NCBI GenBank assembly: GCA_045535075.1
Contig: JAZSKX010000005.1
Coordinates: 95,924 to 159,923 of the forward strand
DNA length: 64,000 bases
Reading direction: 5' to 3'
Source of the DNA: Candidatus Spyradenecus sp.
GTDB lineage: Bacteria; Verrucomicrobiota; Verrucomicrobiia; Opitutales; UBA953
A program made the translations under genes and the position numbers. This document shows positions 1,163 to 63,890 of this stretch, piece after piece. Numbering within the stretch: position 1 is the stretch's first letter; every line of letters begins with the position of its first letter. The notes beneath the pieces were generated by a model that worked only from the letters and a program-made list of their open reading frames with translations, did not search any database and was not told the origin of the DNA.

Positions 1163-1204
1163 TTATTTTTTACAAATTTTAAAATTAAAACTTCGCGGGA
1201 ACGC

Positions 1205-3784
1205 TTACACGTCGAGATAAGACGTGTTGAGCGCGTTGTCTTCGATGAACTGGCGGCGCGGCGGAACATCGTCGCCCATGAGCATTGTAAACACGCGGTT
1301 GGCTTCCGCTGCGTCTTCGATGGTAACTTTGAGGAAACGGCGCGTTGCCGGATCCATCGTCGTTTCGAAGAGTTGCTTCGGGTTCATTTCTCCGAGACCT
1401 TTGTATCGGGAAATCGTCAGCCCGCGGCGCCCGAGTTCGCGGATTTTCGCGATGAGTTCGAGCATCGAGCAAAGCGGATAGCGCTTCGCGTCTTCGTCCG
1501 TTCCCGCGCCTTCGATAAGTTCGTAGCGCGGCTCTTCGCTCGGCGTAAACCGGTTGATATCAAGCCCGAGCGCGGCAAGCTGCTGCAGGATTTTCGTCAT
1601 CTGCGCGGCTTCGTAAATTTCGTAAACGCTGACGCGCTGCTGAACTTTCTGCCCGTTCTCGCCTTCGATTTCACGGATATTCGTCGCCGCCGTAATATCT
1701 TCGACTTCCATGCGAGCGAAGAAACTCAAGCGTTCGTCTTCGGTGAAAAGGTATTCGAAAGTTTCTTCGTTCCCGGTGCGCACGCGGGCGAGGAAGCGCG
1801 GGAGTTCCTGCGTTTCGCGCTTGTGCGTGTCGAGATACGTCGCGAGGTTGCAACCGTAACGCGCAACACCGCGCCCGAGCGTTTCGAGGCGCGCCATGCT
1901 TTCGACGATTTTATCGAGCGTTTCCGGCGCAAAGCACTGATTGTCGCGCTTGCGGAACAGCGAAATATCCTCCGTTCCGAGTTTGAGCAACATCGCGTTC
2001 ATCTGCGCGTCGTTTTCAACGTATTGCTCTTTCTTTTTGCGCTTCACCTTGTAAAGCGGCGGTTGAGCGATGTAAACGTAGCCCGCGTCGATGAGTCCGC
2101 GCATGTAGCGGAAGAAGAACGTGAGCAGAAGCGTGCGGATGTGAGCGCCGTCCACGTCCGCGTCCGTCATGATAACGATTTTGTGATAACGCGCTTTTTC
2201 GATATTGAAGTTTGCGTCGTCGTTTTTCCCGCCTTCGCCAATGCCGGTGCCGAACGCGGTAATCATCGCGCGGATTTCGGCGTTTTCGAGCATTTTGTCG
2301 AGGCGGACGCGTTCGACGTTCAAAATCTTCCCGCGAAGCGGAAGAATCGCCTGAGTGCGGCGATCACGTCCCTGCTTGGCGGAACCGCCTGCGGAGTCCC
2401 CTTCGACGAGGTAAATTTCGCAGAGCGACGGATCCTTTTCCGAGCAATCGGCGAGTTTTCCGGGAAGCCCGCCGCCAGAAAGCGCGCCCTTACGGACGGT
2501 TTCGCGCGCTTTACGCGCGGCTTCGCGCGCACGCGCCGCATTGCACGCAGCTTCGATAACGGCTTTCGCCATCTTCGGTTCTTTTTCAAACGCGAGCTGT
2601 AGCCCTTCGCCGACAACTTTTTGAACAACGCCTTCGACTTCCGGATTCGTCAGACGCGTTTTGTTCTGCGACTGGAATTTCGGATCCGGGTGTTTGACGG
2701 AAACGATGGCGACGAGCCCTTCCTTCATGTCGTCGCCCGTCAGTTTCGGGTCTTTTTCCTTCAGAAGATTGTTCGCCTTTGCATAGGAATTGACGACGCG
2801 CGTGAGCGCCGAGCGGAAGCCGGAAAGGTGCGTTCCGCCTTCCGGATTCGTGATAAGATTCGTGTAAGCGAAAACGAGTTCGCTGTACTTTTTGTTGTAT
2901 TGAATCGCGACGTCGACCGTCATTTTCGTGACGTGGCTACGCCCTTCGGGAACGACGTATTTGTCGTTGATCACGAGCGGATTCGCGGGATCGGTGATAT
3001 CGACTTCCGCCGAAATCAACACCGGCTTCAGCATCAGCAGTTCTTCATTCTGATTGAGGAAGCGAGCGTATTCGGAAAGCCCTTCGCGGAATTGGAAATT
3101 GTCGGAATGCCCCGTGCGTTCGTCGGCGACGGAAATTTTGATGCCGGGAACGAGGAAGGCGAGTTCGCGCATACGGCGCAGAAGCGTTTCGTATTTAAAT
3201 TCGAGAACGGTGAAGATTTCCGGGTCCGGGTGAAACGTAATCTTCGTTCCCGTGCGTTTCGTGTTGCCGATAACATGAATCGGCTTTGTTACTTCGCCGC
3301 GGCAAAATTCCATGCGGTGAACTTCGCCTTCGCGGCAAACTTCGGCGACAAAATGGTCGGAAAGCGCGTTCACGCACTTCGCCCCGACGCCGTTCAGCCC
3401 GCCGGAAACCTGATATGCGCCCTTTTCGAATTTTCCGCCGGCGTGCAAATTCGTCAAAACGAGTTCCAGCGTCGGGATTTTTTCTTCCGGGTGCATCGCG
3501 ACGGGAATCCCGCGCCCGTTGTCGGCAACGGAAACGGAACCGTCGCCGTGAATTGTCACGGAAATTTCGGAACAGAATCCGGCGAGAGCTTCGTCAATGG
3601 AGTTGTCAACGATTTCGTAAACGCAGTGGTGCAGCCCGGTTTCATTGGTATCGCCGATATACATGCCGGGGCGTTCCCGCACGGCTTTAAGTCCTTTGAG
3701 GCGTTTAATGTCGGAGGCTCCGTAGGAAGCTTTCCCGGCATTTTTCTGGGAGATTTTTTCGTTTTTTTCGCTATCGCTCGTCAT
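1205..3784 (-). CDS. gyrB: DNA gyrase subunit B
   Basis: Motifs [53 protein letters not shown]; start placed at ATG 3784 (MTSDS). Confidence 0.97.
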
Positions 3785-4020
3785 AAAAAAATTCAAGGGT
3801 TGTTCACTCCGCAGGGAGCAAAATTTTAAGGCTTGATTCTGTCTGAATTTTGTCGCGGGAGCAAATGATTTTTTCAAATTTATTTCTGAGCGGTTTTCTT
3901 AGGTTTTATGCGGGGAAAACGTTTTTCGCGCCGACAAAAACCGAGAGGATTTTTCGCCGGAAAAGTGCTTTCGAAAATTTAACTTTGCAGGCGAAAAAAA
4001 TAATCCGCAAAATGCGCGTC

Positions 4021-4809
4021 ATGCTCGCAGAAAAACACTTAGACGAACTCCGCAACTTTGCAGAAAAACTCGCCGATACGGCTCGAGAAATCGTCGCCGG
4101 ATACCACGCCAAATTTCACACCGAAATCGAAATCAAAAATGACGGCTCGCCCGTTACCGTCGCCGACAAGGAATGCGAGCGCATTCTCCGCGCGATGATT
4201 CATGACGCGTTCCCGCAACACGGCATTATCGGTGAAGAATTCGGCAACGAAAACACCGACGCGGAATTCGTCTGGTCGCTCGACCCGATCGACGGCACGA
4301 AATCTTTCGTTTCCCGCGTTTCGCTCTACGGCATCCTTTTCGGACTCTTGCACGAAGGCAAGCCGCTCATCGGCGTCATCGACCAGCCGATTACGCGGGA
4401 ACGCATCATCGGCGACGGGCGCGACACGCGCTACAACGGCGTTCCCGTGCGCGTTTCCGACACTCCGAGCGTCGACAAAGCGCTTCTGCTCACGACGGAT
4501 TTCATCGACTGCGAGACCAAGCACCCGAACGAAAATTGGAACGCCCTGCTTCACCGGGCGCGCCTTTTCCGCACTTGGGGCGATTGCTACGGCTACATGC
4601 TCGTCGCCAACGGGCGTGCCGACATCATGGCGGATCCGGAGCTTTCTCCTTGGGATTTGTACCCGCTTTTGCCGATTCTGCGCGGCGCGGGAGCGGAAGT
4701 AACGGACTGGAACGGGAACGACCCGCTCCACGCCAAATCCATTCTTGCCGCCAATCCGCGCCTCCACGCCGAAGCGTTGGCAATTTTAAACACCCCGCCC
4801 AATCCCTGA
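4021..4809 (+). CDS. hisN: Inositol monophosphatase family protein, histidinol-phosphatase (HisN)-like
   Basis: SPVTVAD, GEEFG, LDPIDGTKSF, WGDCYGY, LSPWD; start at ATG 4021 (or 4012). Confidence 0.75.
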   Translation: MLAEKHLDELRNFAEKLADTAREIVAGYHAKFHTEIEIKNDGSPVTVADKECERILRAMIHDAFPQHGIIGEEFGNENTDAEFVWSLDPIDGTKSFVSRVSLYGILFGLLHEGKPLIGVIDQPITRERIIGDGRDTRYNGVPVRVSDTPSVDKALLLTTDFIDCETKHPNENWNALLHRARLFRTWGDCYGYMLVANGRADIMADPELSPWDLYPLLPILRGAGAEVTDWNGNDPLHAKSILAANPRLHAEALAILNTPPNP

Positions 4810-4824
4810 AGTCGCGAATCTGAA

Positions 4825-62643: not shown

Positions 62644-62664
62644 ACCTCAACCCCAAATCAGACT

Positions 62665-63834
62665 ATGCATATTTTCTCAAAATTAAAAGCTCTTCTTTGC
62701 ACTCTTTTAGCTATTGTCGCCGCCGGATTCTTCCTCACGGGTTGTCTATCCGAACAAGAACTTGCCGAACGTGCAAGACAAGCTGAACTCAATGACTTTA
62801 AGATAGAGCTTTGCGCAGACGAACCATCAAGATGGAAACCCGCACTCAAGAAACTTTTTACACTTGTGGAGCAAGGAAATTCTGAGGGGATAAAAATCTT
62901 CTTATCTCTCACAGATCTGATGTGCGATAATGATACCAAGAAATACTTTAGCTCCCCTAAAGACGAAGAACTCCACCGTGTAGAAGGAAATCCGAGGTAT
63001 GTGCACAGAAGTGCTCAAAACACTAGATACCTCAAAGTAACAGGCAAACGCTACAAGCGACAGCACAACAATGGATACGACTACTACGATAACGAATGGG
63101 CCGCTTTTGTTGCTATTGATTGCGCTGTAGAAATCCAAGACAAATGCTTCGAACTCGCTCGAAAAAACGTCCCGTTTGCGACACGAACAGTAGCTAACTG
63201 GGCAGACGACGAGATGTTCAGATACTGGTTTGAAGGTTATGGTCGAGAAGGCTACTGCATCAAAACCAGATTTTGGACCGACTGGGGAATGTGGCTTATA
63301 GACAACAAATCGGAAGGAGCGCTCGGCATAGCATTCGACTTCGCTTGGTATGTAGGCAACACAAAATTTAGCAATAGAAAAATTAGTAGCGGATGGGGAG
63401 ACTCAGACGGGGAAGGTTTTTCAAATATAGAATCATATGCAGAAAAATTCTTTACCGAATACGCAGAAAAGGGAGATGCCAAAGCTCTTTCTCATCTGTT
63501 TTGGGCTCTGACAACCGAACCAGAGGTAGGAACTTGGAAATATTGCTCGCGAGCCATAAAGACGCTCGAAAATCTTTCAATATCCGGAAACAAAGAGGCT
63601 ATTAATTACCTAATACGGATTATGAACAAGGACTCTGCCCAGAAACACGAAAGCGACAGAAACGAAATAAATCACTTTGCAGCATTAAAAGCCCTTATCG
63701 AAATTCAAAAAAAGAAACCCTCATCCGTAATTCACGAGGCGATTATGGAGATTAAAAACAAAACTAAAGATACTGACGTATACGACTATATCGAAAAGAA
63801 CTACCGATACTTCGAAAAAGAGCTGGCGAAATAG
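62665..63834 (+). CDS. Hypothetical lipoprotein with helical-repeat-like C-terminus
   Basis: FLTGC lipobox; AEKGDAKA and SISGNKEA Sel1/HEAT-like turns. Confidence 0.65.
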   Translation: MHIFSKLKALLCTLLAIVAAGFFLTGCLSEQELAERARQAELNDFKIELCADEPSRWKPALKKLFTLVEQGNSEGIKIFLSLTDLMCDNDTKKYFSSPKDEELHRVEGNPRYVHRSAQNTRYLKVTGKRYKRQHNNGYDYYDNEWAAFVAIDCAVEIQDKCFELARKNVPFATRTVANWADDEMFRYWFEGYGREGYCIKTRFWTDWGMWLIDNKSEGALGIAFDFAWYVGNTKFSNRKISSGWGDSDGEGFSNIESYAEKFFTEYAEKGDAKALSHLFWALTTEPEVGTWKYCSRAIKTLENLSISGNKEAINYLIRIMNKDSAQKHESDRNEINHFAALKALIEIQKKKPSSVIHEAIMEIKNKTKDTDVYDYIEKNYRYFEKELAK

Positions 63835-63854
63835 CAATCCTGCAATCTGTTTTC

Positions 63855-63890
63855 CGTTCCCGCGTAATTATCTACGTGGGAACGTTTTTT
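63855..63890 (+). terminator. Intrinsic terminator from one exact and one variant motif copy
   Basis: cgttcccgcgta attatc tacgtgggaacg tttttt. Confidence 0.8.

Follow-up and report, generated by a model that had tools for sequence, protein, structure and literature searches.

What process could fill a bacterial chromosome with a single short and asymmetric word is the question raised by a 64,000-nucleotide stretch of DNA (hereafter, the window) from the gut bacterium Candidatus Spyradenecus sp., along which the heptamer GTTCCCG, or its complement CGGGAAC, recurs from one end to the other. The window lies on contig C15 of its source assembly (G000; 1,949,087 bp in 18 contigs, 52% guanine plus cytosine, GC). 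A sequence-only reading of the window had counted about 230 copies against some 9 expected, roughly 125 in one orientation and 105 in the other, most of them extending to CGTTCCCG(C/T), and had likened the word to DNA-uptake signals. These estimates agree well with the exact count of 236 sites (128 in the + and 108 in the - orientation), compared with a mean of 14.6 (standard deviation 3.6, maximum 23) in 100 dinucleotide-preserving shuffles, none of which reached 236; 179 of the 236 sites read CGTTCCCG, and 153 read CGTTCCCG(C/T). Crude gene calls place 214 of them inside genes. The start of the array, put at 1196, also stands, while its end has to be moved from 63884 to 63862, where the last exact site finishes:

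1196 to 63862, no strand assigned, dispersed array of 236 exact sites (window count)

The abundance of the word is confirmed as real and holds genome-wide; as discussed below, CGTTCCCG may tentatively be regarded as a genus-wide 'self' word, a DNA-uptake signature read on double-stranded DNA regardless of orientation.

Across the source genome, the heptamer occurs 6,528 times and the octamer CGTTCCCG 5,159 times (2.65 per kb), the latter alone making up 2.1% of the sequence (5,159 x 8 bp). Longer forms are also frequent, with 3,244 copies of CGTTCCCGC and 1,614 of GCGTTCCCGC, and at each length from 6 to 12 the motif itself, or a word overlapping it, ranks first. Markov models of orders 0, 1, 2, and 3 predict 69, 183, 268, and 587 copies of the octamer, respectively, the observed excess being 75-fold at order 0 and 8.8-fold at order 3. 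At order 5, a null put forward together with the sequence-only reading, the heptamer exceeds its expectation by only 1.17-fold (6,528 observed, 5,601 expected). This near-unity ratio has a simple cause: the training 6-mers include those of the word itself, which are the commonest of the genome (CGGGAA, 10,920 copies), and the model thereby absorbs the signal, so that it does not provide an independent null. The excess persists, on the contrary, under the other null then put forward, codon shuffling. In genes called with a crude caller of our own (1,366 genes, 84% coding), 4,178 copies of the octamer compare with 460 ± 15 (maximum 491) in 20 within-gene synonymous-codon shuffles, which keep every protein and the codon usage of each gene, and with 154 ± 11 in 10 shuffles of codon order. 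Thus, the excess at the DNA level is about 9-fold, and the proteome is in addition bent toward the word about 3-fold. Together with the use of all six frames described below, this bears out the earlier claim that the word is no peptide or codon artifact. Single-mismatch variants of the octamer are far from equally frequent, since they occur in 26 to 857 copies each, in every case 6 to 200 times fewer than those of the word, the commonest being transitions away from it.

The anatomy of the sites was then derived from a logo of 6,527 of them in the source genome. Information is confined to positions -2 to +9, with the consensus g-CGTTCCCG-(C/T)-(G/A) and without conservation of the flanks, which indicates a bare word and no element of the repetitive extragenic palindromic (REP) or miniature inverted-repeat transposable element (MITE) type. 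Dispersed repeats of this class are ruled out by the unconserved flanks together with the genic location of 4,172 of the 5,159 copies. The word is no palindrome, its reverse complement being CGGGAACG, and its octamer is nearly balanced in orientation (2,632 forward, 2,527 reverse). When the leading strand is defined by GC skew, the G-rich form is found on it 2,565 times versus 2,087 on the lagging strand, a share of 55.1% that compares with the 52.4% predicted by base skews alone and reflects a weak replication bias. The strong replichore polarity that the sequence-only reading had itself named as a contrary result is, therefore, absent. On crude calls, there are 2.56 octamers per kb of coding DNA and 3.12 per kb of noncoding DNA. 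Coding copies occupy all frames, namely RSR (255), xFP (271), and xVPx (1,140) when the word lies on the sense strand, and RER (371), xGNx (693), and (A/T/S/P)GT when it lies on the antisense one, the last being the commonest context (1,442 of 4,172 coding octamers). The six coding examples given earlier for the window (VP at 15360, FP at 4209, RSR at 17843, AGT at 17672, GN at 12520, and RER at 4396) all match the gene calls, two of them being as follows:

15360 to 15366, + strand, coding site in the trigger factor gene, sense-strand word read as V-P
17672 to 17678, - strand, coding site read as A-G-T, word on the antisense strand

Gaps between consecutive sites are near exponential genome-wide (mean 298, median 209, coefficient of variation 1.10), and large contigs are evenly covered, with 3.1-3.7 sites per kb on those over 80 kb.

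Sites lying close together show a marked preference in their arrangement. Among pairs separated by up to 40 nt in the source genome, 265 are in the hairpin-forming order (the word, then its complement) versus 90 in the opposite one, with a spacing peak at 19 nt. Hairpin-forming pairs are intergenic in 178 of the 265 cases, 171 of these being beside at least one gene 3' end, and the remaining 87 fall inside genes. A T-run typically follows the intergenic ones, and the word is present in 239 of the 485 intergenic hairpins of the genome that combine a perfect GC-rich stem with a T4 run. Both intergenic and intragenic examples are found in the window:

10279 to 10300, + strand, inverted pair AAAAAGCGTTCCCGTGAATTCGCGGGAACGCTTTTTTT forming a terminator-like hairpin with T-run, 24 nt past the aspartyl-tRNA synthetase gene (8462-10255, +)
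16625 to 16648, + strand, inverted pair with T-run, 21 nt past the trigger factor gene (15306-16604, +)
23198 to 23223, no strand assigned, inverted pair between convergent genes (22641-23192, +, and 23360-24163, -)
45389 to 45411, no strand assigned, inverted pair within a gene (44756-45871, +)
48472 to 48496, no strand assigned, inverted pair within a gene for 1190 amino acids (48081-51653, +)

According to the available text of bioRxiv 10.1101/2025.10.24.684340, inverted pairs of the DNA uptake sequence (DUS) and of the uptake signal sequence (USS) are likewise used in terminators.

Abundance of the word is a trait of one genus, here represented by 19 genomes of uncultured gut Opitutales. 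These are metagenome-assembled genomes (MAGs) of the "Ca. Spyradenecus/Spyradosoma" group, and the close relatives of the source genome come from goat, sheep, buffalo, deer, chicken, and other sources and are labelled Opitutales, "Candidatus Spyradenecus", or "Candidatus Spyradosoma". The word is hyperabundant in all 19 (552-7,777 copies), 15 of which are referred to below as high-density and four (G001, G002, G013, and G014) as low-density. For comparison, octamers were counted in the remaining family members (118 genomes), in an order sample of 41 genomes, and in a phylum sample of 401 genomes from 184 genera. Copies of the octamer are distributed as follows:

High-density members of the genus (15 of 19 genomes), 5,159-7,777 copies, up to ~4.5 per kb, about one every 250-400 bases
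G001, G002, and G013 (3 of 19), ~1,350-1,385 copies
G014 (1 of 19), 552 copies
Rest of the family, four genera (118 genomes), at most 383 copies
Order sample outside the genus (22 genomes), at most 493 copies
Phylum sample outside the genus (396 of 401 genomes, 184 genera), at most 1,157 copies, in 3.8 Mb

A congener locus of 63% GC retains the word at 4.7 per kb. No description of the word, or of any uptake sequence, was found for Verrucomicrobiota in the literature searched, where the letters of the word matched primers only, and a term search of the text of PMC4390886 (Elhai 2015) gave no mention of Verrucomicrobia.

Orthologous sites were then compared by BLAST of 10-23 kb loci around gyrB against the source genome, with 5-19 kb aligned per locus. 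In seven high-density relatives, 53-71% of the octamer sites of the source genome are kept at the orthologous place, while mean identities of 77-85% predict 12-27%; retention is, hence, 3-5 times the neutral expectation. At three low-density loci (L001, L004, and L005, with identities of 84-85%), 31-40% of the sites are kept versus 24-27% under neutrality, and 86-88% of the sites that these loci themselves carry are common to the source genome. Within the gyrB region some sites are universal, others were born by one or two substitutions at near-sites, and some have been lost via different substitutions in different low-density species, while a few sites that encode conserved residues persist in low-density genomes as well. 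The one-letter variant CGTACCCG has been all but purged from high-density genomes: there are 26 copies in the source genome, and most of its high-density congeners have 0-10, compared with 56-90 copies of the reversed control word. The low-density G001, G002, and G013 have 92-127 copies of the variant. Two sublineages have lost most copies of the word and show decay. Regarding the direction of the change, at both a locus for a PilA-like pilin (90-91% identity) and a pseudopilin locus (~80% nucleotide identity) the source genome is nearest to the low-density trio, G014 is further out, and high-density genomes stand between and beyond the trio and G014. This disposition suggests that, most simply, the word is ancestral to the genus and was let go twice, as judged from three loci and no genome tree, gyrB being in conflict with the other two. 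The gyrB locus is itself peculiar:

1 to 3796, - strand, gyrB region, part of a 5.07-kb tract (C15:94650-99719) 99% identical to L003 of G016, another species of the genus

In the comparison of this tract, made against L003 and L066, the rest of the aligned DNA of G016/L003 is far less similar to the source genome (85% overall), and the region compared with L006 is a mosaic of 70-99% identity. The tract would be the product of either inter-species homologous recombination or a chimera in MAG assembly.

DNA of apparently foreign origin is, in turn, poor in the word. A Mu-like prophage at C16:184000-220000 (L243, L244), which encodes a Gam-like nuclease inhibitor, MuA/MuB-like proteins, a terminase, a portal, and a head protease and is absent from the syntenic site in G013, carries ~0.75 sites per kb versus 2.5-4.5 in its flanks, that is, 4-5 times fewer. 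The longest word deserts of the source genome have a GC content of 39-43%, with restriction-modification genes inside or next to several of them, and one contig of 3.7 kb has zero sites. In the phage sequences of IMG/VR, only 29 stretches show the strict inverted pair; none of these is rich in the word, the maximum being 6 copies per 12 kb. In the window, the longest stretch free of the motif is probably recently acquired DNA:

61518 to 63855, no strand assigned, longest motif-free stretch, 2.3 kb of 42.7% GC at the contig end, with a 389-aa open reading frame (62665-63834) without Pfam match

In practice, the word is also a clear-cut marker with which these MAGs can be binned and foreign DNA in them recognized. 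A gene of the phage integrase family also lies at 7148-8338 of the window, among housekeeping genes.

Neisseria and Haemophilus recognize their own DNA via uptake sequences; DUS is read by the minor pilin ComP, and ComN is the predicted receptor of USS. Every sequence-level hallmark of such words that was tested holds for CGTTCCCG, in line with the likeness first suggested from the window: asymmetry, balanced orientation, presence in all frames, terminator pairs, lineage specificity, orthologous conservation, and depletion in foreign DNA. To our knowledge, uptake bias in natural transformation is the sole experimentally established cause of an asymmetric, orientation-neutral, frame-independent, terminator-forming, and lineage-specific hyperabundant word, and uptake is for this reason taken here as the best explanation. 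Confidence in it nonetheless falls somewhat short of even, and well below certainty, because a receptor and ComEA are missing, the density is very high, and the machinery is intact in decaying lineages. Uptake as the process that reads the word, and a protein of the uptake route as its reader, are points that we infer from sequence. In such a process, a surface or periplasmic component of a route formed by the type IV pilus, ComEC, and DprA would prefer DNA that bears the word; word-bearing fragments from relatives would be taken up and recombined more often, and alleles with the word would replace those without it. Point mutation would then add copies of the word at all places where the encoded protein permits, up to an equilibrium of mutation and drive, and the copies would decay once the preference is lost.

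Comparison with the two established systems reveals likenesses as well as differences. As with DUS of Neisseriaceae, CGTTCCCG is a short asymmetric word present in thousands of copies, in both orientations, in several frames within genes, and in inverted terminator pairs, and it is lineage-restricted; unlike DUS, it belongs to another phylum, is unrelated in sequence, measures 8 bp rather than 10-12 bp, and has no dialects among the genomes searched, and no ComP_DUS homologue accompanies it in the source genome, so that its role in uptake is a presumed one. With USS of Pasteurellaceae it shares the same population-genomic hallmarks, and the four-gene pseudopilin operon found here resembles comNOPQ in arrangement; it differs in lacking AT-rich flanking tracts, and the present pseudopilins are acidic, with similarity to solved DNA-binding pilins detected over the N-terminal helix only. 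DUS and USS occur about once per kb. Chromosome share is comparable, 2.1% for CGTTCCCG in the source genome and 'up to ~2%' for DUS, in the accessible part of bioRxiv 10.1101/2025.10.24.684340, which further states that sequence-specific DNA uptake is established in two proteobacterial families only.

Genes related to transformation are present in the source genome, namely those for ComEC, DprA, a secretin, and a PilB-PilT-PilB-PilC cluster, in addition to seven prepilin-type proteins: a PilA-like pilin, the products of the four-gene pseudopilin operon, situated between ruvX and a pseudouridine synthase gene, and two lone ones. Likeness of the PilA-like pilin, pil228, and pil345 (the three pilins searched) to solved pilin structures is limited to the N-terminal helix.

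Several observations nevertheless weigh against uptake. (i) The ComP_DUS family (PF16732) has no match at E <= 1 in the source genome, and none of its seven prepilin-type proteins belongs to the GspH/FimT family or has a GRxR motif, which in the available text of PMC8897410 is the DNA-binding motif of FimT; the globular parts of these proteins are acidic (isoelectric points of 4.5-4.8, and 6.8 for the PilA-like one). (ii) A small ComEA-like HHH_3 protein (PF12836) was not found in the source genome, the only matches being within frames of 805 and 1,362 amino acids. (iii) ComEC occurs throughout the order sample (41 of 41 genomes), whether or not a genome has the word, and, therefore, the machinery does not discriminate between them. 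(iv) Low-density genomes keep PilB/PilT, the four pseudopilins, PilA, ComEC, and RecC intact, and G013 also DprA and PilQ. (v) At 2.6-4.5 copies per kb the word is several times denser than DUS or USS, and it is shorter than either. (vi) No dialects were found in low-density genomes or in the four sister-genus genomes, each of which was sampled at 57-100 kb. (vii) High-order Markov nulls give observed-to-expected ratios of only 1.03-1.4. Loss of the pilus ATPases, pseudopilins, PilA, ComEC, or RecC was accordingly rejected as the cause of decay, and no gene loss among those checked explains it. A broader screen for genes lost between the source genome and G013, covering 56% of the latter (1.19 of 2.11 Mb), yielded 26 blocks (160 genes) apparently absent at syntenic positions, five of them (39 genes) annotated. 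Several annotated blocks hold essential genes (DnaE, enolase, Rho, FtsK, and ClpB), which indicates rearrangements and no losses and makes the screen uninformative. ComEC and RecC of these two genomes share 63% and 61% identity, toward the divergent end of the gene pairs (11th-13th percentile), a position from which nothing follows as it lacks a high-density comparison.

Other explanations have to be weighed against uptake. That the word has no function and merely reflects codon usage, peptide motifs, base composition, or mobile-element remnants has hardly any chance of being correct: although high-order Markov models nearly reproduce its counts and a few sites for conserved residues are kept in low-density genomes, such a reading is already contradicted by the 9-fold excess over synonymous shuffles, the use of all six frames and of noncoding DNA, the unconserved flanks, variants 6-200 times rarer, and the 118 family members that have similar genomes and no hyperabundance. 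A target of DNA modification, through restriction-modification, an orphan methyltransferase, or phosphorothioation at GAAC/GTTC, appears very improbable. The MmeI family recognizes asymmetric sites of 6-7 bp ending in AC or AG, a shape that CGGGAAC fits, and the source genome encodes such an enzyme; the word also contains GAAC/GTTC, the consensus of Dnd phosphorothioation. Nonetheless, the methylation proposed in the sequence-only reading finds no backing in the genus, where none of the DNA methyltransferase families searched (a search that did not extend to dnd/ssp genes) is present in all high-density genomes or tracks the word. MmeI-like genes occur in the source genome and in 9 of its 18 congeners (43-80% identity) and were not found in the dense G003, G006, G007, G009, and G016, and C5-methyltransferases occur in 10 of the 19 genomes, eight high-density ones being devoid of any; with such patchy distributions, both were rejected as the cause of the word. 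An N4/N6 enzyme of PF01555 is absent from the source genome, whose remaining N6 enzymes are type I HsdM, which read bipartite sites, and whose methyltransferase genes are all located in or beside low-GC, word-poor islands. Restriction sites are, moreover, usually avoided rather than enriched. Somewhat less improbable, though still improbable, is a Chi-like self marker that RecBCD would recognize to stop degradation, so that the cell's own DNA is repaired and word-poor foreign DNA destroyed. All 19 genomes of the genus have RecC with its frame open, the word resembles Chi of E. coli in being an asymmetric octamer with a G-rich strand, foreign DNA is poor in it, and the prophage carries its Gam-like nuclease inhibitor. 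Chi of E. coli is, however, ~75% polar, far from the leading-strand share obtained here, the density of the word is far beyond what Chi needs, and RecC remains intact in decaying lineages. Chi and the polar sequences that orient FtsK or impart chromosome architecture (KOPS/AIMS) resemble CGTTCCCG in being asymmetric octamers over-represented in core DNA and differ from it in their strong replication polarity; a separate word family of the same genome (GAGCAGGG, AGCAGGGC, and GCAGGGCG), which is polar, suits the Chi/KOPS niche better.

Three further readings merit more attention. The word could be bound by an abundant protein, specific to the genus, that organizes the chromosome, as Xu, Lawrence and Durand reportedly read the highly iterated palindrome HIP1 (GCGATCGC) of cyanobacteria. 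Conservation of orthologous sites beyond neutrality, uniform coverage of large contigs, and neutral orientation are in agreement with it, but it is unlikely considering that spacing is near exponential and shows no regularity (periodicities of 10-90 kb being outside the test), that no candidate protein was found, and that it leaves the ~75-90% loss of sites in two sublineages with ordinary genomes unexplained. HIP1 and CGTTCCCG are both octamers of comparable density with conserved orthologous sites and low-abundance lineages; HIP1 is palindromic and tied to two conserved methyltransferases, while CGTTCCCG is asymmetric and no methyltransferase tracks it. In the accessible texts, orthologous conservation of HIP1 sites has been used to infer selection (PMC5861425), exceptional lineages of low HIP1 abundance exist (PMC4390886), and HIP1 has recently been proposed as an uptake sequence (PMC13756078). 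Alternatively, biased repair or gene conversion unrelated to uptake might replenish the word inside the cell, a genus-specific enzyme (for example, a mismatch or nicking endonuclease) converting near-matches into CGTTCCCG. In its favor, several single-mismatch variants are rarer than composition predicts (as the 26 copies of CGTACCCG illustrate), the commonest variants are transitions, as a balance of mutation and restoration would give, decay occurs where the checked pilus and ComEC genes are all kept, and neither a DNA-binding pilin nor ComEA was found. On the other hand, no candidate enzyme was identified, and very-short-patch repair in E. coli enriches its product far more weakly, which leaves this reading a minority possibility; the word-poor Mu-like prophage fits slow accumulation and does not separate the two models. 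Of comparable, modest plausibility is the idea that the word is the trace of an undescribed genome-wide self-marking system, involving neither transformation bias nor Chi nor methylation, in which a lineage-specific reader would restore an 8-bp word every 250-400 bp, recurring with different words across Verrucomicrobiota and able to switch off, after which decay would follow.

The word belongs to a phylum other than that of the established systems, is found in symbionts that are abundant though uncultured in the gut of ruminants, poultry, and other hosts, and is denser than in any case known to us. Should uptake prove to be its cause, this kind of self-recognition would evolve repeatedly, and gene flow in gut communities would be expected to meet strong barriers and to follow strong channels. 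The close relatives that are losing the word constitute a natural experiment, through which comparative genomics might identify the reader protein. Otherwise, should uptake not be responsible, the word points to an unknown force shaping ~2-3% of the genome.

Some candidate words found while searching for dialects were rejected as such. The motif yCACCACCAACCC of G014 is a clustered repeat rather than a dispersed word, its copies recurring every ~18 nt in arrays; these arrays are intergenic and mostly at contig ends in L012-L021 (G014) and in L011, and CCACCAAC has 104 copies in ~100 kb. In the sister genus genome G019, CGTACCCG occurs 63 times in the 100-kb sample, yet only 163 times in the whole 2.3-Mb genome, and is therefore a local repeat. 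The top new words of the low-density G013 are tandem heptamers (CTTTAAT/CTTTAAG) confined to intergenic arrays. Intergenic arrays of CTTTAAT/CTTTAAG/CTCTAAG heptamers are found, for example, on its contig C5 at 150-2600 (locus L129), and AGATTAAAG has 254 copies in 1.19 Mb of this genome, with 142 of 216 gaps below 120 nt, compared with only 48 copies in the source genome.

Regarding neighboring systems of the source genome, in a defense island at C2:15779-22229 (L037) a reverse-transcriptase protein of 937 aa and a T5orf172-domain protein come after an MmeI-family type IIL enzyme of 995 aa, and the island adjoins a low-GC, word-free stretch. Finally, the words resembling GAGCAGGGCG are strongly replication-polar in this genome, with leading-to-lagging counts of 105:6 for GAGCAGGG, 94:3 for AGCAGGGC, and 157:20 for GCAGGGCG; this family is a likely candidate for KOPS/AIMS or Chi in the genus. 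In the window, CCCTGCTC is found at 14672, 49693, 50546, and 51845 of the + strand, which is here the lagging one.

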